DNA of 64,000 nucleotides from Gemmatimonadota bacterium (GTDB lineage: Bacteria > Gemmatimonadota > Gemmatimonadetes > Gemmatimonadales > GWC2-71-9), in contig JBDTNH010000004.1 of NCBI GenBank assembly GCA_039933845.1, forward strand, positions 259-64,258, given 5' to 3'. The notes beneath the pieces are model-generated. The model was not told the origin of the DNA. It saw only the letters and a program-made list of their open reading frames with translations, and did no database searches. Positions 45,276-63,944 of this stretch are shown in pieces (within the stretch, counting starts at the first letter, position 1; each line of letters begins with the position of its first letter). The translations under genes were made by a program, and so were the position numbers.

Positions 45276-45704
45276 TCAAGCCCTGGAGGTATCCCGGCCG
45301 CCGTTCCAGCGATGCCAGTACATGCGCAGTTCGGTGATCCGATGACCGTCGGTCTCGGCGAACAGCGCTCCCCGGGCGTCGACCCACTGCCCCGACTTTC
45401 GGCGCCGGAAGACCAGGCGAAATTCGGTGCTGAACCAGAGGTCCCCGGCGGTGAAGATCTCGCCCACGGTGAACCGCGGTTCAGACTGGCTGTACGGGAT
45501 ATCAGCCGCCCAACTCCGCATGGCGGCAATGCCCCTGATCGGCTCAGAGAATGGCGTCTCGAGAAACGTGCACTCCTCGGCGAACACTTCCATCATGGTG
45601 TCGATTCTGGCCTTGCTCCAGCTGCGAGCGAGGGTTTCCGCGAGCGCGCGCGCGCGCAGAGTGAACGGGAGCTCGAGCTCCGAGTTGTCGTCGTCCGTGC
45701 TCAT
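45276..45704 (-). CDS. NTF2/SnoaL-like fold protein
   Basis: About 140 aa, and its ATG overlaps the kinase stop (ATGA). The fold assignment is weak. Confidence 0.5.
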   Translation of the reverse strand: MSTDDDNSELELPFTLRARALAETLARSWSKARIDTMMEVFAEECTFLETPFSEPIRGIAAMRSWAADIPYSQSEPRFTVGEIFTAGDLWFSTEFRLVFRRRKSGQWVDARGALFAETDGHRITELRMYWHRWNGGRDTSRA

Positions 45705-48613
45705 GGTTTCCGCCCGCTCAGGGTATCCTCGATGGGGCGCTCGCCGCTCAAGCGGGTGATGGCCTCGCGGACTGCGTCGGCCACCGGTTGGTAGGCTGAG
45801 TCTGGGTGATCCCAAAGGCTCAGGAATCGCTGATAATGGACCCGTGCGGAATCGGCTTGCCCGGCGGCCTCAAAGATCGAGCCCAGGGCTCGCTCGCGGG
45901 CAGTAAAGAGTTCCAGCGAGTTGGGGAACCCCCATCGTAGGCGAGTAAGGGCGGCGGTGCGGTGGCTCGGGATTCTTGCCTCAAGCAGCGCGTACCGAAT
46001 CTGGAAGGGCGCGGTGAAGGTGGCGAACCCGAGTGAGCTGCCGATCAATTGGATCCCGCTGTCTGCCAAGACCAGCGCGCGGGCGGTGTCCCCCTTGGCC
46101 GCCGCCGCGAGCCCGATGATCCCGACCAGAGTGCCACGAATGGGCCGCTGCAGGGTGTCCGGGTTGCCGAGCAGGACTCGGGCAATCGCCTCGGCCTCGT
46201 CCGGCCTGCCCATTTCGACTGCCAGGAGGGCGCGCCACGTGCCCAGGTACGAATTCGGATTCCGGGCATTTGCGATGGCGAATCCCGAGTCAATTTGCGC
46301 GAGTCGGCGTGCGGTCTCGAATCCGGAGAGCATCGGCAGCAGGGGGATGTAGCCGGCCGCTTCTCCGAGGCCTGCTCCCTCGCGCTGAATGTATGCGCGC
46401 GCGCTATCGATTCGGGCCGTCGAGGCGGAGATCAGCCCCACGATGAGGTCCATCTGCGGGCCGAAGGCCTGTCCATCCATGGTGCGTGCGAGGCCGCGCA
46501 GGAGCTGGATGAGGCGGGTGCCGCTGATGGAATCAGCGGTGAGCTTCGAGGTCAAGGTAGCAAAGGCCATCCCACTGCCGATGGCGTCACCAAACATCGC
46601 CGCGATCGCGCTGTCGGACCCCGCCATCGCCTGACGGACCAGGCGGACTCGCTCCAGCTCCGCCGTGGCATTCGCAGCCCGGAAGACCGACTCGTATCGC
46701 CCGATCAGCCCGGTGTCGTGCTGAATGATGGCGAGTTCGAGCGGGTGGATCGCCGCCTGGGTCAGCGTCGAATCGATCCCGAGGACGCGGTCGAATGGGG
46801 CGCGGAGTTGGTCGGGCGGCAGCGGCCGATAGGACCGCCCGTGAAACTGCGCTTCACCGAGGAGATACCAGCCGTCGGCATCATCGGGATGCGCGCGAGT
46901 GTAGGAGGCGGCAGAGTCTATCGCCGAATTCTCGGCACGATTGAACAAGTCCGACGCGTAGAGCAGTGACCGGAGTCGAGGCGGAAGCGAATCCGAGTAC
47001 CTGACCGCATTGGCGGAGGCGGCGCGGGCGATCGGGCCTTGGTACGCTCCCTTCCATCCCAAGGTATTGGCGAGCTTGTACCAGGCCAGCGCGAAGGTGG
47101 AGTCCTCGCGCACCGATTCCTCGAAGGCAGATTGTGCACTGTCCCATTCGCCGCGGCGGTGATACCGCTCCCCTTGCAGGTACGCCCGGATGGCCGGGAC
47201 CGAGTGCGAACGGATGCCCGACGCGTTGGCCGACGGCAGCGGCTCCCGGGAACGCCAGATGTCGCGAAGCAGCGAGAGCGCCAATGTGTTGGAGAGCGTC
47301 AGCACCGAATCGGCGGGACCGTCGACCGACGCGCGTGAAAGTTCCTTGCCATTCAGGTCATAGAGCTGGGCGCTGAGGCGGGCGGTTCCACCGGTGGTGA
47401 TCACGCTTCCCATCAGGACCGAGGCCGCCTTCGTGCTCCGTGCCACCGCGAGCGCATCCTGGAGATCACCAGCGCCCCCATCCACCTGGCGGTGCCACTC
47501 CCGGATCACGCTGCGCGGCTCGATCGTCTCGATGTCGCCGACCCCGCTCAGGGAGCCCGCGAGCAGGTCAACCATTCCCTCGCCGATTCCCTCGAGACCT
47601 GGGCCCGTCGTGGCGAACGGGACGATCGCAATCGATTCTGCCCCCGAGATGACCGTGCGCGGGGGACCGGCAAAGAATACTCCCCAGATCACGGCAGCGG
47701 CCGTCACGGCGACGGGCAGGATGATGGCAAGTCGCTTCCACCGGCGGCTTTCACGCGTGGCCGCGGCGACGCCTGAGCTCTCCTGCGTCACCGCACGCGC
47801 GAAATCGGTGATGTTCGCGAACCGGTCTTCCGGATCGGTCGACATCGCGCGCTTGGTCGCGTTATCCACCTCGGCCGGGATGCCATCAACCACGCTCGAG
47901 AGCAGCGGTCGCGGCGCGGTGAGGATCGCCGTCAGCATGGCCTGCATCGTGGGGCCGGCAAACGCCTGCCGTCCGGTGACCAGCTCGAAGAAGACGCACG
48001 CGAGCGCATATTGGTCGCTCCGAGCATCGACCTCGTCGGCGGTCGCCTGTTCGGGGCTCATGTAGGCCGGGGTCCCGATCGCCATGCCCGAGCCGGTGAG
48101 GTTGCTCTCGGAGCGAGACGCGTCGACGGCTCGTGCGATCCCGAAATCGGCGACCACGGCATGACCGCCGGAGAGCATGATGTTCTCCGGCTTGATGTCC
48201 CGGTGCACGATACCATGGGCGTGGGCGTGCGCCAGTCCACTGGCTGCTTCCTGGATGATCACGGCGGCTCGCGGCAGCGCGATCCTGCCCTCGCGCTGCA
48301 TCAGGTCACGCAGCGATTCGCCCTCGATGAAGGGCATGACATAATAGAGGATGCCGTTGGCAGATCCCGAATCGTAGACGGGGACGATGTGTGGGTGCTG
48401 GAGCTTCGCGGCGAGCTCAATCTCGCGAAGAAAGCGTTCCCCACCGAGGGACGCGGCGAGCTCAGGGCGGAGCACCTTGATGGCGACTTGGCGATGGTGC
48501 TTCAAGTCTTCGGCGAGATACACGGTCGCCATGCCGCCTTGGCCGACCTGACGGTCGAGCGCATACTGGTCCTTCAGTGCATCGGCGAGTCGCTCCAGCA
48601 TCCTGTCGGTCAT
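45701..48613 (-). CDS. membrane Ser/Thr protein kinase with a large TPR-like C-terminal region
   Basis: GQGGMATVY, VAIKVL, HRDIKPENIM, DFGIAR, YMSPEQ. One TM helix (LAIILPVAVTAAAVIWGVFFA). About 640 aa of helical repeats. Confidence 0.9.
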   Translation of the reverse strand: MTDRMLERLADALKDQYALDRQVGQGGMATVYLAEDLKHHRQVAIKVLRPELAASLGGERFLREIELAAKLQHPHIVPVYDSGSANGILYYVMPFIEGESLRDLMQREGRIALPRAAVIIQEAASGLAHAHAHGIVHRDIKPENIMLSGGHAVVADFGIARAVDASRSESNLTGSGMAIGTPAYMSPEQATADEVDARSDQYALACVFFELVTGRQAFAGPTMQAMLTAILTAPRPLLSSVVDGIPAEVDNATKRAMSTDPEDRFANITDFARAVTQESSGVAAATRESRRWKRLAIILPVAVTAAAVIWGVFFAGPPRTVISGAESIAIVPFATTGPGLEGIGEGMVDLLAGSLSGVGDIETIEPRSVIREWHRQVDGGAGDLQDALAVARSTKAASVLMGSVITTGGTARLSAQLYDLNGKELSRASVDGPADSVLTLSNTLALSLLRDIWRSREPLPSANASGIRSHSVPAIRAYLQGERYHRRGEWDSAQSAFEESVREDSTFALAWYKLANTLGWKGAYQGPIARAASANAVRYSDSLPPRLRSLLYASDLFNRAENSAIDSAASYTRAHPDDADGWYLLGEAQFHGRSYRPLPPDQLRAPFDRVLGIDSTLTQAAIHPLELAIIQHDTGLIGRYESVFRAANATAELERVRLVRQAMAGSDSAIAAMFGDAIGSGMAFATLTSKLTADSISGTRLIQLLRGLARTMDGQAFGPQMDLIVGLISASTARIDSARAYIQREGAGLGEAAGYIPLLPMLSGFETARRLAQIDSGFAIANARNPNSYLGTWRALLAVEMGRPDEAEAIARVLLGNPDTLQRPIRGTLVGIIGLAAAAKGDTARALVLADSGIQLIGSSLGFATFTAPFQIRYALLEARIPSHRTAALTRLRWGFPNSLELFTARERALGSIFEAAGQADSARVHYQRFLSLWDHPDSAYQPVADAVREAITRLSGERPIEDTLSGRKP

Positions 48614-48721
48614 GGGCCGCCCGTCGAGAGGAGGATTGTTGGAATCTAGTGGGCTGGCACGGGGATGAGGAGCCGATAAGTTTCCTGTGGACCCCGTCCT
48701 TCATGAACCAGAGGCACGACC

Positions 48722-49859: not shown

Positions 49860-51029
49860 ATGACCAGTCGAACCACGCCGTACCGCCTCCAGAAGTTCGT
49901 GGTGACCGAAGGGCCGAAAGGTCACCGCGTCAGCGCGGCGCTCGACGGGAGCGAAGTCTGGTTCGAGAGCGAGGGATTTGGGGCACCACACGAAGCAGGA
50001 AACGCCTTCCTCTCCGTCGCGCTCCTTGCCGCGATGGCGGAGGGTCGTGATCTCGACATGTCCGACTTGCCACCGGTCTCCCCGAAGCTCCTCGACGCCG
50101 TGCCCACCGTGCAGGCGATCTGGACCCAATGGAATCCGCGCCTGTCGGCCATCGAGGTCCGCGCCAACCGATCCCAGCACGCCGAACCAGGCACGGGCGA
50201 GAGCCTCTTCTTCTCAGGCGGCATTGACGCGACGCACAGCGCGCTTGAGGGAACGCCGGGGCGGCAACTTGTTTTTGTTTCAGGCTTTGACCACGCGGTC
50301 GACCGCGAAATCGTTCCGACCACCACCGCCCGACTCGCGCGACTCGCTCAGCAGCTCGGATCGTCCCTGACCATGGTCGAGAGCAATTGGGTCGAGTGGC
50401 GACGTGATCGCCGGCTCTCGGGTGCGCTGATGCACGGAGGTTGCCTGACTGCTGTGGCCCACCTGCTCGGCCACGGCCACATCACGATCTCTTCGTCGAA
50501 CTCGTTCAAGCGCCTGACACCGTGGGGTACGCATCCTCTGGTGGATCCGCTCTGGTCTTCGGAACGCACCACGATCCACCACTGGGGCAATGACTGCAGC
50601 CGAGCGGAAAAGATCGCGCGTGTTGTCCGAGAGCCGGCGCTTCACGCCGATCTCTGGGTCTGCCACGAGCGCCAGATTGGCAACTGTGGTCACTGCGCCA
50701 AGTGCGCGCGGACCCGCTTGGCGTTCCATCTGCTGGGGAGTGAACTGCCGACCGAGGGGGGCACGACGCTCAGCGACCCTGTAACGGCGTACCTGCCACA
50801 CCTCAAGAGCGGTTCCGAACACGTCTACATCGAGGAAATGCAGGTGCTGGCGCGCGCCGCGGGGCATGATCAGGCGCTCCACCTGCTCGAGCGCGGAGCG
50901 CGACGGCTCGCGCGACGCCACCTGCTGCGCGACCTCCGAAATGCCGCCTTCACCGGTTCCGCACAACGCCGCATGGCGACGACCGATCTGCAGCCCTGGG
51001 GCTACGGCCCCGCGCCGAGGTCACTGTGA
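49860..51029 (+). CDS. QueC/ExsB-like PP-loop superfamily protein, paralog 2 (uncharacterised)
   Basis: FFSGGIDA (SGGIDA at 50214-50231) and CHERQIGNCGHCAKC. ATG lies 1 nt after the paralog 1 stop. Confidence 0.7.
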   Translation: MTSRTTPYRLQKFVVTEGPKGHRVSAALDGSEVWFESEGFGAPHEAGNAFLSVALLAAMAEGRDLDMSDLPPVSPKLLDAVPTVQAIWTQWNPRLSAIEVRANRSQHAEPGTGESLFFSGGIDATHSALEGTPGRQLVFVSGFDHAVDREIVPTTTARLARLAQQLGSSLTMVESNWVEWRRDRRLSGALMHGGCLTAVAHLLGHGHITISSSNSFKRLTPWGTHPLVDPLWSSERTTIHHWGNDCSRAEKIARVVREPALHADLWVCHERQIGNCGHCAKCARTRLAFHLLGSELPTEGGTTLSDPVTAYLPHLKSGSEHVYIEEMQVLARAAGHDQALHLLERGARRLARRHLLRDLRNAAFTGSAQRRMATTDLQPWGYGPAPRSL

Positions 51030-52147
51030 CGCTTCGAATCACGGAGCCCCGACGGACGCCGCGCGCGGACGGACTCGTCCGGCACTCGGCCCAGGTGGAT
51101 GGCCAGGAGCTCTGGTTCGACGTACCATCCGACCGCTCGGGAGAGCTCCGCGGCGAGGCGTTCCTGGCCTGCGTGATCATTCCAGCCATGGCCAGGAATT
51201 CTGCCGTCGAGGTCGATCCGGCGCTCCCGATTTGCCCCGACTTCCTCGCCGGATTGCTGGCGTACATGCAAGTGGTCCGCTTCTGGTCCGACGAAATTGG
51301 GCACCGGCTCTGCCCGGTCCCGATCCGCGCCGAGACCGAGCCTCCCTCCCCGGGCATCGGCACGCTGTCCTTCTTCTCGGGTGGGGTCGACGGGCTCTAC
51401 ACCCTGCTCGAAGAACGACCCCGGATCACCGAAACGGTGTTCTGCCACGGGGTCGATTTCCAACTCGGCAGTGCGCTCGCCGCCCAAGCCACGAGCCGAA
51501 ACCGCGCGTGGCTGGCCGATCACGACCTCCCGCTGCTCGAGATGGCATCCAATGCGCGCTTCGTCGGCCACCACCTTGGCATCGGATGGAATGCGCACAA
51601 TGGTGCCTGCCTTGCCGGCTACGGTCATGCCCTCGGGGCTCGGGAGATCTTGATCGCGTCGGGCCACGCCTGGAGCGACTTTCTGGGGGGGGGAACTCAC
51701 GTACTCAGCGACCCGCTGTTGTCCTCGGCCGCGACACGCGTTCACCATCACGGATTCGGCCCGATGCGATGGCAGAAGCTCCTCCGGGTCCTCGCCGAAC
51801 CTGGGGTGGACGAGCTGCTTCGGGTCTGCTGGCAGGACAAGGACTACAACTGTGGCGAATGTGAAAAGTGCCGCCGCACCATGCTGGACCTGCACCTCCT
51901 GGGGGTGACGTCACCCGCCTTCCCCTCGACGGCGCGCCTGACGGATGTCATCCCAAGTCGAGTGCACGACTGGGAGTCCGCCTGCTACATGCGTCAGACG
52001 CTCTGCCTCGCCCAGCACGTCGGGCGCCGCGACGCAGAAGCGGTGGTGCAGTCCCGTCTCCGAGACTGGGACCGACGCCAATGGCTGCGTCGAGCCGACA
52101 CGGCCTTCCTCGGCGGCGCCCTCCGCCGGTTGAAGCAACGTCGTTAA
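51026..52147 (+). CDS. QueC/ExsB-like PP-loop superfamily protein, paralog 3 (uncharacterised)
   Basis: FFSGGVDG (SGGVDG at 51377-51394) and CWQDKDYNCGECEKC. GTGA overlap with the paralog 2 stop. Confidence 0.7.
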   Translation: MTLRITEPRRTPRADGLVRHSAQVDGQELWFDVPSDRSGELRGEAFLACVIIPAMARNSAVEVDPALPICPDFLAGLLAYMQVVRFWSDEIGHRLCPVPIRAETEPPSPGIGTLSFFSGGVDGLYTLLEERPRITETVFCHGVDFQLGSALAAQATSRNRAWLADHDLPLLEMASNARFVGHHLGIGWNAHNGACLAGYGHALGAREILIASGHAWSDFLGGGTHVLSDPLLSSAATRVHHHGFGPMRWQKLLRVLAEPGVDELLRVCWQDKDYNCGECEKCRRTMLDLHLLGVTSPAFPSTARLTDVIPSRVHDWESACYMRQTLCLAQHVGRRDAEAVVQSRLRDWDRRQWLRRADTAFLGGALRRLKQRR

Positions 52148-55858: not shown

Positions 55859-56413
55859 GTGCATTCGCTACACTCGACACAGCTCGCCACCGGCAAGGCC
55901 ATCTTCGGCGCCCGGGACGTCATGGTCGCGGAATGGTCCGATTGGCTTACCCGCCGCCAGGCGGGCGGGCGGATGCCCGAGGCACTGGTCGACCGCAAGC
56001 TGCGGTTGGTCCTCGACGTGTTGATCGAGATGCTTGGCCCGCTCCGGCGCGAGGCCAACCTGATCTGGCCGCGGGTGATGGAGCAGTACGGTCGGATTGG
56101 TGCCTCGCGCGGGCTCGCCGCCGGCGAGGTGGTCGAGGAAATTCAGCAACTTCGCGTCCTCCTGATTCGTCATGTCGGCGACACGATCGCCGCAATGCGT
56201 CCGCGTCGCTCGGTGGCCGTCTTCTTGCGCCTCAATGCCATCGTCGATCGCGGGATTGCCGAGGCGGTGGTCGGGTATACCGATGTCCTCGTGGCGTCGC
56301 TGCTCCCATCTGACCAGGATTCGATGTCGGTGATGTCCGAGTCGACCGAAGCGCTCGAGGCGCTGCTGGACGAGTTCGACATCGAGCTCGCCCGCGTCAC
56401 TGCCGGCCGCTGA
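55859..56413 (+). CDS. hypothetical helical protein (possibly RsbRD-N-like sensor domain)
   Basis: GTG at 55859 preceded by AAGGAGAGG. 184 aa. The family call is tentative. Confidence 0.5.
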   Translation: MHSLHSTQLATGKAIFGARDVMVAEWSDWLTRRQAGGRMPEALVDRKLRLVLDVLIEMLGPLRREANLIWPRVMEQYGRIGASRGLAAGEVVEEIQQLRVLLIRHVGDTIAAMRPRRSVAVFLRLNAIVDRGIAEAVVGYTDVLVASLLPSDQDSMSVMSESTEALEALLDEFDIELARVTAGR

Positions 56414-58320: not shown

Positions 58321-58700
58321 AGCAGGATGGTGTTCGACCGTGAGGGCGTCGTCGACAGACTCCGCGGGTGCAGTGCCCGGCCACGTTACCCGCAACCGCG
58401 CGAGACATTTTTCGCCTGATCGGCGCCGCTTTACTTTCGGTACCGAGCGTGGCGTCCGTCCCGCCCGACCCCGACACGCCGCTCTGGCAAGTCGGCATGC
58501 TGGGCAGCTTGCCCTGCTGGTGGACTCCCCGTGACCCACGCTCCGCCCGGAAGCGTGCCCATCGTCTAGCTCGCAGCGGTCACCTCGGCCTGATCCTCAG
58601 TGGCGAGACCTCGGGCCAACACGAGCTGATCGTGACGATTCGGCCCTGCCTGCCGTTCCGCGTCGTCCCACCACTCCACCAATCGCTCGGCCTCACTCGG

Positions 58701-61277
58701 ATGAGTCACGCGGCGCCAACCGGGTCCCGCCTGGGCGATGCCATCGCCTTCGCGAAGGCGCTCGATCTTGATGCCCAGGGACGGGAAACATTCCAACGCC
58801 TGCGTGGGGTCATGGCCGTGGCTGCGCCGGATCTGCGAGGGTCCACCGAGCCTGCCGATCGACAAACCTGGCTCCTGCTCCAGGTCACGCGACTGCTCTT
58901 CCTCCGATTCGTCGAATCGGAGGGATGGCTCGATGGCTCGGTCACTTTCCTGCGCGATGCCGTGGATCAGGTCCTGACCTCCTGCAAGGACCCCGGCCGC
59001 GAGTTGCTCGAGCCGCTGTTTTTCGGAACGCTCAACCGTCCTCGCGATCGGCGGAATACTCGATCGCGGCAATTCGGCACGATCCCATTCCTCAATGGTG
59101 GTCTCTTCGAACCACATGCCCTCGAACGGGCGCACGCGTGGCGACTCCCTCGTGATCGCTGGCGTGAGTTGCTGGATGCCGTGATCAACTCGACCGAAGT
59201 GTCGCTCGACCTCGATGCCCATCCGGACACGATCTCTCCCGAGATGCTGGGTCGGATCCTCGAGGGACTGATGGACCCCGAGGAACGCTCCCGTGCCGGC
59301 GTGTTCTACACACCACCCGCGCTGGTCGAGGTCGTCGTCCGTGAAGCGGTGGCATGTCACATGGCCGCACGCCTCGGTCGCTCGGAGAGTCAGATCCACG
59401 ACGCGCTCGACGCTCCCGACCCGGATTTGGTCATGCACCTTCGGAGACTTCGCGTCCTGGATCCGGCGGTCGGGTCGGGCGCCTTCCTCGTCGGGGCACT
59501 CCACCTACTGCGACGAGGTGCCGGCAGTTCGACGGCGCTCACGCGTCGCCTGATCACCAGCAACCTGCATGGCATCGATCGCAATCCGACCGCGGTCCGC
59601 GTCACGGAGCTGCGTCTGTGGCTCGAGCTCCTGCGCACGATGCGAGGCACTCGGGCCGATGCCGTCGACCCCCTCCCCAACCTCGATGCGGCGATACGAG
59701 CTGGAGATGCGCTGATCGACCCGCTCGAGGGTCGCCGGATTCCCTCGCACCTGATCGCGACACTCCAGCGGGCACGGCACCAGGTTGAGGCCGCTCATGG
59801 CAGCGCACACCACGCGGCACAGCGTCGGCTCGTTGTCGCGGAGCGCGCCGCGATCGATGCGGCACTCGGAGAGGAACTCGCCCGACTCACCGCGCAGCGC
59901 AGCGAGGCACTCGACGCCGGGAGCGCCGCCACACTCTTTCCGGATGCCGCCGCACCGGTCGCGGCGCCAGTCGATCTCGACCAGGCCATCACACGTGTCA
60001 CGCAAGAGCGCGAGGCTCTCGCGCGTGATGATCGCGCCGCCACCTTTGCCATCGAGAGTGCCTGGCCCGACGTGCTCGCCGATGGTGGCTTCGACCTCGT
60101 GATTGGCAATCCCCCGTGGGTGCGTTCGGAACGACTCCCCCCCTTGATGCGTGGTCGGCTCGCCGCGCGGTATCGGTGGTGGCATACCACGGGCACGGGA
60201 TGGCCACACCCACCGGATCTCGCCGTGGCCTTCGTCGAGCGTGCGTTTCGCTTGATTCGTCCGGGTGGGACGTTCGGACTCCTTGTCCCGGGGAAACTCG
60301 CCACAACCGCGTATGCCTCGGTCGCTCGAGCGGCATTGGTGCGCGAGGCCACGATCCACACGGTCGCCGATCTCGCCGACGATCCGCGGGCGGCGTTCGA
60401 CGCGACGACGTACCCGTTGGCACTGGTGGCCAGTCGCACACCGCCGGTCACGGAGCATCTCATCCGACGGAGCCTCGACCGCGGCGCAAGCGTCGTCCCG
60501 CAGTCCGCATGGCGAGGGGTGCGGTCGTGGGTCGGTACGGACGGCACCAGTACGGGACTGCTGCGTCGGCTCGCCTCGGACCATCCAACGGTGGCAACAA
60601 CCCACACCCCGAGCATCGGCGTCAAGACCGGAGCCAATGCGATCTTTTTGGATCCACCCGACGACCTTGACGCCTGGACAAGACCAGCGATTCGCGGCCG
60701 CGACATCGGGATCCACGGACTCACGGTGCGTCACCGGATCCTCTGGCCGATCGATCCCTCAGGTACCCCTTGCCGGGTGCTTTCTTCCGCAGTGCAACGC
60801 TACCTCGCCCCATTCGAGGCGCGCCTGCGGCACCGTGCCGATCAGGTCAGGGGGCCATGGTGGCAGATCTTCCGGATCGGGCCGGCTGCATCACGGTGGC
60901 GAGTGATCTGGCCAGACATTGCCACGGGACTCCGCGCGATCTCGCTCGAGAGCCCCGAGCCCGTCCCGCTCAACAGTTGCTATGTCGTGCCGTGCCTTTC
61001 GCGCGAACGGATGCTCCGTCTCGCGGCCTGGTTGTCCGTCTCGTGGATCAGGGCACTCGCCCGGATGGGCGCCGAGCGCGCTGCCGGTGGCCACCACCGC
61101 TTCGGTGCACGCGTCGTTGCCGGCCTTCCCTGTCCGGAGGCGGTCTGGAACGATCGTTGTTTCGACCCAACCAGTGATGCCACGGCGGCCAGGCGCGACG
61201 AACGCGCCGCGGAGCTACTCGGATTGGACCAGGATCACCGTGTCGCGCTCGCTGCACTCGCGCCGTCTCGTCGCTGA
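58701..61277 (+). CDS. PglX/Eco57I-like gamma-class N6-adenine DNA methyltransferase
   Basis: FLNGGLFEP, FYTPP, motif I VLDPAVGSGAFL (59454-59489), motif IV NPPW (60108-60119), and TaqI-C-type TRD signature IGVKTGANAIF. The frame is open upstream to 58368. Confidence 0.85.
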   Translation: MSHAAPTGSRLGDAIAFAKALDLDAQGRETFQRLRGVMAVAAPDLRGSTEPADRQTWLLLQVTRLLFLRFVESEGWLDGSVTFLRDAVDQVLTSCKDPGRELLEPLFFGTLNRPRDRRNTRSRQFGTIPFLNGGLFEPHALERAHAWRLPRDRWRELLDAVINSTEVSLDLDAHPDTISPEMLGRILEGLMDPEERSRAGVFYTPPALVEVVVREAVACHMAARLGRSESQIHDALDAPDPDLVMHLRRLRVLDPAVGSGAFLVGALHLLRRGAGSSTALTRRLITSNLHGIDRNPTAVRVTELRLWLELLRTMRGTRADAVDPLPNLDAAIRAGDALIDPLEGRRIPSHLIATLQRARHQVEAAHGSAHHAAQRRLVVAERAAIDAALGEELARLTAQRSEALDAGSAATLFPDAAAPVAAPVDLDQAITRVTQEREALARDDRAATFAIESAWPDVLADGGFDLVIGNPPWVRSERLPPLMRGRLAARYRWWHTTGTGWPHPPDLAVAFVERAFRLIRPGGTFGLLVPGKLATTAYASVARAALVREATIHTVADLADDPRAAFDATTYPLALVASRTPPVTEHLIRRSLDRGASVVPQSAWRGVRSWVGTDGTSTGLLRRLASDHPTVATTHTPSIGVKTGANAIFLDPPDDLDAWTRPAIRGRDIGIHGLTVRHRILWPIDPSGTPCRVLSSAVQRYLAPFEARLRHRADQVRGPWWQIFRIGPAASRWRVIWPDIATGLRAISLESPEPVPLNSCYVVPCLSRERMLRLAAWLSVSWIRALARMGAERAAGGHHRFGARVVAGLPCPEAVWNDRCFDPTSDATAARRDERAAELLGLDQDHRVALAALAPSRR

Positions 61278-63267
61278 GGCGCTCGACACCCTGCGAGGCC
61301 TACCGCGCGCCGGGAGCGCCCGCGTACCCGGACCGGTGCCACCCCTTTTCCCTGCCGCGCTCTCACCGGACCAGCTCGAACTGGCAGCGCGCGTGGTGGC
61401 GGCCCTTGACGGATGGCGTGCAGTCGTGCTCGCGGCACCAGTTGGCAGCGGCAAGACCTGGATCGCACTCCACGCCGCGGCAGTGCGCGGCGGCGCGATT
61501 GCCGTGATCGGACCCGCGGCGCTCCGGCAGCAGTGGTTCCGCACCGCGGACAGACTCGCGATCCGCATCACGTATACTTCGCTAGCGCAGGTCAGTCGGG
61601 GTCATCTCCCGCCACACTCCCGGATGGTCCTGATCGATGAAGCGCATCGGCTCCGGAATCCGGGAACGCGTCGTGTCCAGCACCTGGCTCCATGGTTGAT
61701 CGGCTGCGAGACGATTTTCATCACGGGCACACCGATCGTGAATGGACCACGCGACCTGATCGGTCTCCTCCGCCTCTCCCTGGCCGACGACTGTCTCCGC
61801 CTGGATGGTGTCAGGTCACTCGAGGCACTCCTTGCCGCACCCATCCCTCCCCCAGCACTCGCACGATTGGTCGTGCGAGGAGCACCGCAGAGGTCGCGAG
61901 TGCCGATCATCCGACGCGAGCTCGCGCCGCTCCCCGCGGAAAATGCTCGTGGCAAGAGAGTCCTCGAGACACTTGCCACACTGGCGTTGGGCGAGTCAGC
62001 CGCCATCGCGCGGCTCGTGCGCGTCGTGCTTCTCGATGCCGCCGCCTCGAGCGATGCGGCATGGCACCTCGCGCTGGCGCGATATCGAACGCTGCTCCGT
62101 CACGCGCGTCAGGCCGGGAGACTCTCACGAGCAGCCATCCGAGCCTTCGTCGGGCCGTACCCGGATCAGGGCGTGATGTGGCAGCTCTTCCGGACATCGG
62201 ATCTCCCGAGCCTGCTCCCTGTCGACGACCTGACTGCGCTGGACGAGGCACTGGCCACGCCGCCCGACGACACGGCCTGGATCACTGCGGTGATCGCCGC
62301 CATCGCCGGGCTCGGCCCGACCCTCCTCTTCACCCGACATCTCGGGACACTCGACGTTGTGAGAAGGGCCGCGGGGCCCCGTGTGGCGTGGGTGTCCGGT
62401 GAGTCTGCCGGGATCGGCGAACACCGCCTACCACGCAGCGCGGTACTCGCGGCATTTGGTCCGGAGCGAACCATCTGGCAGGCTCGGCGCACCATTCCCG
62501 AGCTTCTGGTGCTCAGCGATGTTGGCGCCGAGGGCCTCGATCTGCAGGGCGCGCGCTGCGTGGTACACCTCGACCTCCCGTGGCATGACACCGGGATCAG
62601 GCAGCGAACCGGCCGTGCGGCACGCATCGGACAACGAGCGCCCCACGTGATGGAGATCCGCCGACTTCCACCGACCCCGATCGGCGAGGCACTCGGTATC
62701 GTGCGGATGGTCCAGCGAAAGGCCCAACGCGCACGGCTCTGGATGCGCGCCTTGGACCGCTCGCCCATTGTGATCGCGGCGCCGTCCGAGCTCGGTACCG
62801 GTTGCTGCGACATGTACGTGCGCGTGACGCTCGAGTGCGGTGCCCAGCACGGGGAGATTGCGCTGGGACGCGAGCACGGCGGTTCGCGGTGGCAGGTGCA
62901 GGAGCTGGGGATGGTCGAGGCACTGCAACGACGGGGAGCGCTGGTCCGGACGGATCCTGCCCGCTTCCCCCCTCCCCAGCTTGTGGAGGCGGTTCGGCGG
63001 TTCACCTCGCCGGTGTTTGTCTCCCGGCCGGAGCTGGTGGTGCGCTTGATGGCCGCTGCGGCCGATGCTGCAACGCGGCGGCGGGTCGATCTGGTGACTG
63101 GATTGGATCACCTGGTGCGGTGCACGTCCCGAGGTCATGGCATCGGGCTCGAGCGGCACCTTGCCAGTGCGACGGTCGACCACTTGCTCTCCACCGTCTC
63201 GCTGTTCGAGCGAGGGGCGCCGGACCAGATCCTGCGCTGGGTCTACCTCATCCCGACCCTATCCTGA
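61240..63267 (+). CDS. SNF2-family (DEAH) helicase with an unassigned C-terminal domain
   Basis: Walker A APVGSGKT (61435-61458), DEAH (61636-61647), TGTPIVN, SDVGAEGLDLQ, QRTGRAARIGQ. A GTG at 61240 overlaps the MTase 3' end by 38 nt, but the start is uncertain. Confidence 0.8.
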   Translation: MSRSLHSRRLVAEALDTLRGLPRAGSARVPGPVPPLFPAALSPDQLELAARVVAALDGWRAVVLAAPVGSGKTWIALHAAAVRGGAIAVIGPAALRQQWFRTADRLAIRITYTSLAQVSRGHLPPHSRMVLIDEAHRLRNPGTRRVQHLAPWLIGCETIFITGTPIVNGPRDLIGLLRLSLADDCLRLDGVRSLEALLAAPIPPPALARLVVRGAPQRSRVPIIRRELAPLPAENARGKRVLETLATLALGESAAIARLVRVVLLDAAASSDAAWHLALARYRTLLRHARQAGRLSRAAIRAFVGPYPDQGVMWQLFRTSDLPSLLPVDDLTALDEALATPPDDTAWITAVIAAIAGLGPTLLFTRHLGTLDVVRRAAGPRVAWVSGESAGIGEHRLPRSAVLAAFGPERTIWQARRTIPELLVLSDVGAEGLDLQGARCVVHLDLPWHDTGIRQRTGRAARIGQRAPHVMEIRRLPPTPIGEALGIVRMVQRKAQRARLWMRALDRSPIVIAAPSELGTGCCDMYVRVTLECGAQHGEIALGREHGGSRWQVQELGMVEALQRRGALVRTDPARFPPPQLVEAVRRFTSPVFVSRPELVVRLMAAAADAATRRRVDLVTGLDHLVRCTSRGHGIGLERHLASATVDHLLSTVSLFERGAPDQILRWVYLIPTLS

Positions 63268-63284: not shown

Positions 63285-63944
63285 ATGTCAACACCTCATC
63301 CTGTCCTGTTCGACCTCGACGGCACCCTCATCGACTCGATCGATCTGATCGTGGACAGTTACCTGCATGTCTTCCGGACGCATCAGTTGCCCGTGCTCTC
63401 CCGCGAGGAACTGATCGAGGGAATCGGCACACCGCTCTGGACCGTCTTCGGGGGCTTCACCGACGATCGTGCCGTGATCGATGGCTGGATCGTGACCTAC
63501 CGGGAGTACAACCTCGCGCATCACGACCAGCGTGTGGTGGCCTTCCCCGGGGTCACCGAAATGCTCCGGTCGATCCATGACGCGGGGCGCCCGCTCGGAC
63601 TCGTCACGAGCAAGAATCACGCGGGTGCCGAACGCGGACTTCGTCTGATCGGGGTCCGGGAGCTCTTTGCGGTGATCGTGGGCGCCGACGATGTGACCCA
63701 CCCCAAGCCGCATCCGGAGCCCGTCCAGCGCGCGCTCGGGCAACTCGATGCGGTGGCAACGAATGCGTGGTACATCGGTGATTCGCACCACGACATTGAT
63801 TGCGGCAACGCAGCCGGAGTCCGCACCATCGGCGTCACGTGGGGGCCCGTTTCGCGGGAGAGGTTGACCGCATCTGGGCCAACACACCTCATCGACACAC
63901 CCGACCAGCTGCTGGACCATCTGGGCGTGCCCCGCCGAGGGTAG
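63285..63944 (+). CDS. HAD family phosphatase (PGP/PpaX-like)
   Basis: Motif I LFDLDGTLIDS, motif II LVTSK, motif IV GDSHHDIDCG. Confidence 0.85.
   Translation: MSTPHPVLFDLDGTLIDSIDLIVDSYLHVFRTHQLPVLSREELIEGIGTPLWTVFGGFTDDRAVIDGWIVTYREYNLAHHDQRVVAFPGVTEMLRSIHDAGRPLGLVTSKNHAGAERGLRLIGVRELFAVIVGADDVTHPKPHPEPVQRALGQLDAVATNAWYIGDSHHDIDCGNAAGVRTIGVTWGPVSRERLTASGPTHLIDTPDQLLDHLGVPRRG

Follow-up and report, generated by a model that had tools for sequence, protein, structure and literature searches.

An overlapping N6-adenine methylase and SNF2 ATPase gene pair conserved as a stand-alone unit in Gemmatimonadota

The DNA analyzed here, referred to below as the window, is a stretch of 64,000 nucleotides (nt) from a Gemmatimonadota bacterium (GenBank assembly GCA_039933845.1, contig JBDTNH010000004.1, positions 259 to 64,258 of the forward strand). 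Two long open reading frames (ORFs) lie on the same strand in the region of interest and overlap each other: the first encodes a predicted N6-adenine DNA methyltransferase (hereafter the methylase), and the second encodes an ATPase/translocase of the SNF2 family (hereafter the helicase) (Table 1). We show below that these two genes form one unit: they are inherited together, co-evolve, are translationally coupled, and have been passed down vertically at a housekeeping locus. A preliminary description of this DNA, made from its letters alone, had reported an overlapping methylase/SNF2 gene pair. That observation was partly confirmed: the pair is real once the start of the methylase gene has been corrected.

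Table 1. Coordinates of the gene pair, its domains and motifs, and neighboring genes (positions in the window; aa, amino acids; AF2, AlphaFold2; pLDDT, predicted local distance difference test)
Feature	Coordinates	Strand	Description
N6-adenine DNA methyltransferase gene	58368..61277	+	969 aa; Eco57I/MmeI/PglX-like, gamma class; from Pfam and homolog length
Family-specific N-terminal domain of methylase (residues 1-142)	58368..58793	+	AF2 pLDDT 89.9
Helical spacer of methylase (residues 131-300)	58758..59267	+	Pfam DUF7814, MmeI_hel; carries the next three motifs
RLLFLRFVESEGWL motif of methylase	58890-58931	+	
FGTLNR motif of methylase	59022-59039	+	
IPFLNGGLFEP motif of methylase	59082-59114	+	
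Methylase motif I, DPAVGSGAF (residues 365-373)	59460..59486	+	S-adenosylmethionine (SAM) binding
Methylase motif IV, NPPW (residues 581-584)	60108..60119	+	Catalytic
TaqI-type target recognition domain of methylase (residues 691-900)	60438..61067	+	GVKTGAN, RGRD, and LNSCYV motifs
Overlap of methylase 3' end and helicase 5' end	61240..61277	+	38 nt, read from the sequence; translational coupling
SNF2-family ATPase/translocase gene	61240..63267	+	675 aa; Pfam SNF2-rel_dom and Helicase_C
Helicase motif APVGSGKT	61435-61458	+	
Helicase motif DEAH	61636-61647	+	
Helicase motif TGTPIVN	61723-61743	+	
Helicase motif QRTGRAARIGQ	62602-62634	+	
Family-specific C-terminal domain of helicase (residues 465-675)	62632..63264	+	AF2 pLDDT 82.2; not a nuclease
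PpaX-like HAD-family phosphatase gene	63285..63944 (L089 15710-16369)	+	NCBIfam PpaX 202 bits, cut-off 218
184-aa protein	55859-56413	+	No Pfam, NCBIfam, or PADLOC match
Two adjacent ORFs, 389 and 373 aa	49860-51029, 51026-52147	+	4-nt overlap; no Pfam, NCBIfam, or PADLOC match
999-aa protein	45701-48700	-	N-terminal Ser/Thr kinase domain, then TPR repeats

The methylase frame is open from position 58344, and its earliest start codon is the GTG at 58368; no earlier start exists because there is an in-frame TGA at 58341-58343. The preliminary description had begun the protein at the ATG at 58701, which was wrong. Since the methylase homologs are about 970 aa long, the 111-residue stretch ahead of that ATG is conserved, and the region gave a compact domain model, we placed the true start at GTG 58368, 333 nt further upstream. 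In an alignment of 16 sequences, W51, L67, R69, and R111 were invariant in this N-terminal region. The methylase gene ends with the TGA at 61275-61277, and the helicase GTG precedes the end of this stop codon by 38 nt, with the sequence AGGA located 5 bases upstream of the GTG. The overlap of this length was confirmed in the sequence, and all motifs that had been quoted for the two proteins were located at exact coordinates. We assigned the helicase start to this GTG because a database copy that is 99% identical to the helicase (P0001) has the same length and because the resulting N-terminus matches the conserved R-x-VAE-x-L peptide, which is the common N-terminus of helicase homologs.

The methylase had three Pfam matches above curated cut-offs: Eco57I (69.3 bits against 25.3; 5.5e-19), N6_Mtase (38.1 against 20.4), and DUF7814 (29.4 against 27); matches to MmeI_Mtase and MmeI_hel were below threshold. 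We aligned 232 full-length homologs, which fall into two subfamilies of about 970 aa (the type in the window) and about 1100 aa (the Gemmatimonas type). At 130 columns of this alignment identity was at least 97%, including both catalytic motifs (D365, P366, A367, G369, S370, G371, A372, and F373 of motif I; N581, P582, P583, and W584 of motif IV) and many positions in the recognition domain. The order of the motifs, I before IV, is that of the gamma class. Together with the Eco57I domain and the C-terminal TaqI-type recognition domain, this arrangement places the protein among the Eco57I/MmeI-type gamma-class methyltransferases, so the PglX-like architecture with its own recognition domain that had been proposed for the methylase was upheld.

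Comparison with solved structures was consistent with this assignment. The helical spacer aligned with residues 188-376 of MmeI (5hr4), whose helical spacer and methylase together aligned weakly with the window protein, and the catalytic region ahead of the recognition domain (residues 574-661) aligned weakly with M.TaqI. Mean pairwise identity within the two subfamilies was 0.64-0.71 for the helical spacer and 0.65-0.70 for the catalytic core, compared with 0.51 and 0.67 for the recognition domain, which is thus not hypervariable; we saw no sign of recognition-domain swapping in the alignment of 232 homologs.

The substrate of such an enzyme might instead be RNA or protein, as for the NPPY-type glutamine or ribosomal RNA methylases. 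NPPW-type motifs are also found in HemK/PrmC, the methylase weakly matched PrmC (E = 0.018), and one homolog is annotated at its source as a release-factor methylase. However, the architecture is that of a DNA enzyme throughout, from the MmeI-type spacer and the Eco57I domain to the TaqI-type recognition domain with its GVKTGAN and RGRD motifs, and the partner comes from a family of double-stranded DNA (dsDNA) translocases. We therefore consider action on RNA or protein highly improbable.

As a separate observation, the published methylome of Gemmatirosa kalamazoonensis KBS708 contains three N6-methyladenine (m6A) motifs, RGATCY, ATGCAC, and CCAGN7TCA (PMC3974934), and the paper assigned no gene to ATGCAC (PMC3974934). 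ATGCAC, a candidate type of site for an enzyme of this kind, is short and asymmetric like those produced by MmeI/PglX-like enzymes.

In Pfam, the helicase scored 35.6 bits for SNF2-rel_dom (cut-off 24.9) and 41.8 bits for Helicase_C (cut-off 23.5). Both lobes of the motor and its motifs are present, and the protein thus belongs to the SNF2 family of SF2 ATPases, as a compact member whose ATPase core begins at about residue 50. Motifs I, II, III, V, and VI were invariant in 16 sequences (G69, G71, K72, D133, E134, H136, T164, P165, E431-L435, Q455, R456, G458, R459, R462, and G464). These Pfam matches and invariant motor motifs confirmed the earlier identification of a compact SNF2-type ATPase. 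Given their conserved catalytic and motor motifs, the methylase and the SNF2 ATPase both look catalytically competent and under purifying selection.

Among solved structures, the helicase family profile matched RapA, ISWI, the Rad54-like protein of Sulfolobus (Sso), LSH, and DDM1, with RapA as the top match, for the C-lobe. This ranking is one reason to consider that the methylase may act alone, in the manner of Dam or CcrM, next to an SNF2 protein with an unrelated role such as RapA-like RNA polymerase recycling or repair, the adjacency of the two genes being operon inertia. An identification of the helicase as RapA itself was rejected: the NCBIfam RapA model gave 24.4 bits against a cut-off of 576, with 46 residues matched, and the RapA N-terminal domains are absent. 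Further evidence on this explanation comes from the distribution of the pair, described below.

We looked for a nuclease at the two places where related enzymes carry one. In Type IIG/IIL enzymes, the PD-(D/E)xK nuclease sits where the methylase has its N-terminal domain; in Type III Res subunits, the nuclease sits where the helicase has its 210-residue C-terminal domain. We modeled each domain separately from family alignments with AF2, in both cases with high confidence, and compared the models with solved structures using Foldseek. The methylase N-terminal domain, with a modeled alpha-beta-beta-beta-alpha-beta-beta-beta-alpha topology, had no significant match (best E = 0.23); its weak matches included PD-(D/E)xK proteins (Hjc resolvase and alkaline exonuclease, E = 0.4-0.5), which we did not count as evidence. 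Only M1, P93, R111, and the terminal ALDxDAxGR junction are invariant in this domain, and no acidic residue or lysine is conserved ahead of the junction. A search of 1.84 billion representative proteins with a profile of the domain returned only 25 matches, the strongest being the N-termini of methylase-length proteins or short fragments, and produced no link to MmeI-type nuclease domains.

The helicase C-terminal domain likewise had no significant Foldseek match among solved structures (best E = 0.89). Only K494 and R614 were invariant in 31 sequences, joined by W551 in a smaller set of 16, and we found no conserved D/E/K catalytic set in this domain. The previous claim that the methylase has no N-terminal PD-ExK nuclease had been made on a truncated protein, and it holds for the full-length one; the claim that the helicase has no Res-type nuclease held as well, as its C-terminal domain has neither conserved catalytic residues nor a structural match. 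Judging from the models, the two family-specific domains may represent new folds or strongly diverged ones. The idea that a nuclease has decayed within the N-terminal domain is unproven.

To describe the surroundings of the pair, we compared the window with seven annotated loci obtained from six homologs, with helicase identities from 72% down to about 41%, and with the locus of Gemmatimonas aurantiaca T-27, giving eight related loci in total. All of the named helicase homologs are from Gemmatimonadota. A recurrent order was seen in the seven loci: Nramp, IdeR, NUDIX, hydrolase, the 184-aa protein, in most cases a GT2 glycosyltransferase, the methylase, the overlapping helicase, and a HAD phosphatase. 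In one of the seven, Nramp and IdeR lie beyond the end of the locus; in the closer relatives, ArgR and an arginine operon follow the HAD phosphatase gene.

Scanning one genome for each species gave 80 loci. Wherever a Gemmatimonadota locus included upstream DNA, the methylase gene directly preceded the helicase gene on the same strand, and the same pairing was found in one Longimicrobiales and two Thermoanaerobaculia genomes. Even in Thermoanaerobaculia, Longimicrobiales, and several Gemmatimonadaceae, where no other synteny remains, the two genes stay paired. The helicase frame is already open ahead of the methylase stop codon in 61 of 65 loci, and most of these have candidate start codons lying between a few and some tens of bases ahead of it (for example, -4 and -38). 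Pairwise distances of the methylase and the helicase were correlated with a Mantel r of 0.914 (n = 44), the highest value of all gene pairs tested. The distances of the pair also tracked those of the flanking hydrolase and 184-aa genes (r = 0.76-0.86), compared with 0.65 for these two flanking genes against each other. The pair is thus conserved as a unit, a point on which the preliminary description had made its proposal depend.

These results bear directly on the possibility that an orphan methylase merely sits beside an unrelated SNF2 gene. The HAD phosphatase and other neighbors, which have no evident functional tie to the pair, are conserved as well, as operon inertia would have it. By contrast, the persistence of the pairing beyond all other synteny, the frequency of the stop/start overlap, and a Mantel correlation that exceeds those of the other pairs tested all argue against this possibility. 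Distant SNF2 matches in Myxococcota, Betaproteobacteria, Paludibacillus, and Gemmataceae might have supplied examples of the helicase without its partner; we rejected them as family members, as they form a separate family of 922 aa in which the methylase is absent. We therefore regard independent functions for the two proteins as improbable.

G. aurantiaca T-27, the phylum's cultured type strain, also carries the pair, at about 3,195,044-3,200,756 of AP009153. There, the methylase has 1105 aa and the helicase 800 aa, their genes overlap by 8 nt, and the HAD gene overlaps the helicase stop codon by 4 nt; upstream of the pair are IdeR, Nramp, NUDIX, and peptidase S66 genes. In the Gemmatimonas-like subfamily (L045 and L088/L089), the methylase has about 1100 aa, compared with 970 aa, and the helicase about 790-800 aa, compared with 675 aa. 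Both partners thus appear to have been lengthened together in one lineage. No fused methylase-helicase protein (a Rosetta stone protein) was seen among the homolog matches.

In plasmid and phage collections, we found no close relative of the pair; the best matches reached at most 29% identity over at most 53% of the protein, the closest being to the methylase. Co-inheritance, co-evolution, translational coupling, and vertical descent at a housekeeping locus make the pair unlike a mobile defense island. Could the pair nevertheless be a decaying, functionless remnant of a larger defense system that has lost its effector? Three loci (L026, L047, and L081) have broken methylase frames, as a decaying gene would. 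However, hundreds of clusters at 90% identity keep the full length and all catalytic motifs, and the three broken frames come from a single metagenome-assembled series (isolate names MFD...), in which assembly error is a possible cause. Decay is thus a very unlikely explanation.

No PglZ, BrxC, BrxL, or DrmA/B/C was found in the window or in the eight related loci, so the absence of these partners that had been noted for the window extends to its relatives. PADLOC models gave no match to the genes flanking the pair. In 47 of 59 loci, the HAD phosphatase gene follows the helicase gene on the same strand at no more than 2.5 kb, often at less than 100 nt; it is missing from the Thermoanaerobaculia and Longimicrobiales loci. 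It may belong to the operon as a third member or may simply be syntenic. In Escherichia coli, dam shares an operon with a HAD phosphatase gene, gph.

Upstream of the pair, the window contains genes for the Ser/Thr kinase with TPR repeats, two unassigned proteins, Nramp, a DtxR/IdeR-type repressor, an alpha/beta hydrolase, the 184-aa protein without a family, a GT2 glycosyltransferase, and a secreted-looking protein of 251 aa. The 184-aa protein is conserved in Gemmatimonadales (94% to 48% identity in seven loci), and in most window-like loci its gene directly precedes the methylase gene, or the GT2 and methylase genes; this is not the case in G. aurantiaca. In a mechanical ORF list, this gene starts at a TTG and has 278 aa, probably an overestimate. 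We considered the 184-aa protein, the 251-aa protein, the GT2 glycosyltransferase, and the two unassigned upstream proteins as third components of the system and rejected them: none had a PADLOC match, and only the 184-aa gene is consistently adjacent. L001 and L002 contain, at their corresponding end, a gene close in size to the two adjacent unassigned ORFs and without a Pfam match. The other large ORFs of the window that we tested encode housekeeping proteins (L,D-transpeptidase, NAD synthase, peptidases, and others) or had no Pfam match.

Taking these results together, we propose, tentatively and with a probability of roughly 45%, that the pair is a vertically inherited, motor-assisted, nuclease-free chromosomal m6A system of Gemmatimonadota. 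From homology, the methylase would read a specific, probably asymmetric site through its TaqI-type domain and transfer the methyl group of SAM to the N6 position of adenine. The SNF2 ATPase, expressed from the overlapping, coupled frame, would bind the methylase in a complex, with likely contacts through the N-terminal domain and C-terminal tail of the methylase and the N-terminal peptide and C-terminal domain of the helicase. The motor would then track along dsDNA in an ATP-driven manner and either carry the methylase between sites or clear bound proteins, such that sites on the newly replicated, protein-coated chromosome could become fully methylated. A motor would help because marking an asymmetric site on one strand leaves one daughter duplex to be re-methylated from scratch in each generation. 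The logic of this step would resemble that of the eukaryotic remodelers DDM1/LSH, which open chromatin to DNA methyltransferases. As the pair lacks a nuclease and any other effector, its output would be the methyl mark itself, for a housekeeping use such as regulation, replication, or repair.

A more specific version of this proposal is that the site-specific m6A methylase depends on the SNF2 motor, as its obligate partner, for setting up or keeping the chromosomal methylation pattern, which would make the pair a bacterial counterpart of the relationship between DDM1/LSH and DNA methyltransferases, domesticated from a DISARM/BREX-type defense module; we offer it as a possible but rather doubtful refinement. 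As a precedent for such cooperation, in Serratia's class 1 DISARM, m6A completeness for DrmMI was 84% in the full system, compared with 57% with the methylases alone (10.1101/2021.12.28.474362). With regard to descent, the pair would most likely have been domesticated from the SNF2-plus-methylase module of DISARM/ARMADA/BREX-type defense. The preliminary description had left open whether the pair is a methylation-dependent self/non-self module or an epigenetic one; vertical inheritance at a fixed housekeeping locus across Gemmatimonadota favors the epigenetic half of this alternative and disfavors the self/non-self half.

To our knowledge, SNF2-plus-methylase pairs have so far been known only inside multi-gene anti-phage systems. 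The pair described here occurs alone and is under purifying selection across Gemmatimonadota, an abundant, little-studied soil phylum. As it stands alone, it isolates the SNF2-methylase module from any effector, and the contribution of an SNF2 motor to a DNA methylase could be studied cleanly in it. The pair is also likely to exemplify the turning of a defense module to a housekeeping epigenetic function. Because the cultured strain G. aurantiaca T-27 carries the pair, the question is directly testable.

Several points weigh against a housekeeping m6A system. Every functional step that we propose for the pair (DNA methylation, complex formation, and the role of the motor) is an inference from sequence. 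BREX shows that methylase-based defense can work without a recognized nuclease. Third-position GC content is 0.73-0.75 for the pair (58344-63267), compared with mostly 0.76-0.83 in neighboring genes. The overall GC content of the two genes is the same as or above that of their neighbors, and possible causes of the low third-position value are low expression, with weak codon bias, and a composition rich in Ala, Arg, and Pro. We also scanned metagenomes from the 184-aa gene: of the 17 loci that had 6.5 kb or more of downstream DNA, 13 carried the methylase on that side, and the pair was absent from the other four, in which the GT2 and HAD genes were gone too; because all synteny is lost there, these four loci say nothing about absence from the genome as a whole. 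Finally, the best hidden Markov model relatives of both proteins are defense components: DrmMI (1e-30), Type IIG enzymes, DrmD (7.5e-16), DpdE, and BrxH, with PglX also among the closest profile matches.

This last point leads to the strongest competing explanation, a minimal, non-degradative defense system related to BREX and DISARM. Here, the methylase would mark the host, and on incoming unmethylated DNA the complex would engage its sites and let its motor block replication or strip replication proteins; the lineage would simply have kept the system for a very long time. A Swi2/Snf2 protein (RapA/BrxHII-like) with a PglX-like methylase is indeed a recognized module common to DISARM class 1 (DrmD and DrmMI), ARMADA (ArmA and ArmB), and BREX type 3 (BrxHII and PglXI) (10.1101/2025.09.15.676423; PMC13463889). 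In ARMADA II, ArmA and ArmB are each essential for anti-phage defense (10.1101/2025.09.15.676423; PMC13463889), a finding that also counts against our proposal, and DrmC, the candidate nuclease of DISARM, is dispensable (10.1101/2021.12.28.474362). However, in the systems described so far, the module always occurs with a YprA-type helicase or helicase-nuclease (DrmAB, ArmC) or with PglZ/BrxC (10.1101/2025.09.15.676423; PMC13463889), all of which are absent from the window and the eight related loci. A fixed position, order-wide vertical descent, and distances that track those of housekeeping neighbors are unlike defense islands, and the lack of close plasmid or phage relatives points the same way. 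We saw no swapping of recognition domains, whereas armB is the variable gene in E. coli. The defense ancestry of both proteins thus favors this explanation and their genomic behavior disfavors it; we judge it less likely than a housekeeping system, yet a serious rival.

We compared the pair with known systems, beginning with restriction enzymes. As in Type IIG/IIL enzymes such as MmeI and Eco57I, a single polypeptide combines a helical spacer, a gamma-class methylase, and a TaqI-type recognition domain, and has an N-terminal domain at the nuclease position. The pair differs in that this domain lacks the D...(D/E)xK residues, which, with the insignificant structural matches given above, led us to reject this class, and in the addition of an ATP-dependent motor partner. 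In Type ISP enzymes (LlaGI and LlaBIII), a gamma methylase of the MmeI lineage with its recognition domain and an ATP-driven dsDNA translocase form one polypeptide, and the combination of methylase and dsDNA translocase recalls that in the window. However, those enzymes are single chains of nuclease, motor, methylase, and recognition domain with an Mrr-type nuclease and a Type I-like motor, whereas the pair consists of two separate chains with an SNF2 motor and no nuclease; we rejected this class also.

The comparison with Type III Mod/Res that had been suggested previously fails because the order of motifs is I then IV, and hence not beta class, and because there is no Res-type nuclease; the ResIII match in Pfam covers 41 residues over the P-loop only. 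The likeness to DISARM DrmMI and DrmD, proposed alongside it, stands insofar as the module is shared. Among chromosomal methylases, Dam of Gammaproteobacteria and CcrM of Alphaproteobacteria are likewise vertically inherited, nuclease-free, and situated among housekeeping genes. They are small enzymes of the alpha and beta classes that act alone on palindromic sites, whereas the window methylase is a gamma-class protein of 969 aa with an ATPase partner gene. In eukaryotes, DDM1/LSH and DNMT5 (an SNF2-methylase fusion) couple an SNF2 motor to a DNA methyltransferase, and LSH and DDM1 were among the profile matches of the helicase; given the lack of specific orthology, the methylation of cytosine, and the nucleosomal substrate, this is an analogy only.

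The closest comparison is with DISARM class 1, ARMADA, and BREX type 3, in which the gene for an SNF2/RapA-like ATPase lies beside that for a large gamma-class NPPW methylase with its own recognition domain. The pair in the window differs in having no YprA-type helicase, PLD nuclease, GajB-like helicase, PglZ, or BrxC. We rejected DISARM class 1, as drmA, drmB (DUF1998), and drmC (PLD) are absent from the window and within 10 kb in the eight related loci; BREX, as PglZ and BrxC are not among the neighbors and the PglX models remained far below their cut-offs; and ARMADA types I and II, as no further helicase gene (ArmC; definition from 10.1101/2025.09.15.676423) is adjacent in the annotated loci. 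ARMADA type II also has a GajB-like ArmD (10.1101/2025.09.15.676423). The gene order in DISARM class 1 and ARMADA II is helicase then methylase, the reverse of that in the window.

None of the curated models for DISARM, BREX, MADS, and Dpd was reached. The partial matches in NCBIfam were 47-52 bits against cut-offs of 500-950, placing the pair outside known defense subtypes, as had been suspected: 51.6 bits against 950 for DISARM_DrmD_b, 35.9 against 610 for DISARM_DrmD, and 22-47 against 400-900 for the BREX PglX models. The PADLOC DrmMI match of 104 bits covered only parts of the 1347-position profile. Literature searches on Gemmatimonadota SNF2/methyltransferase and on orphan Eco57I methylases with SNF2 returned no relevant report. 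Of the earlier suggestion of an undescribed type, novelty of the module itself does not hold, as SNF2 with a methylase has precedents; its stand-alone occurrence is unusual. Five differences separate the pair from the known module: it stands alone, its gene order is reversed, both proteins carry extra family-specific domains, its scores reach only 5-10% of the family cut-offs, and it is inherited vertically at a housekeeping locus, not in a defense island. Thus, the pair is best regarded as a new, stand-alone variant, probably domesticated, of the SNF2-plus-PglX-like-methylase module.

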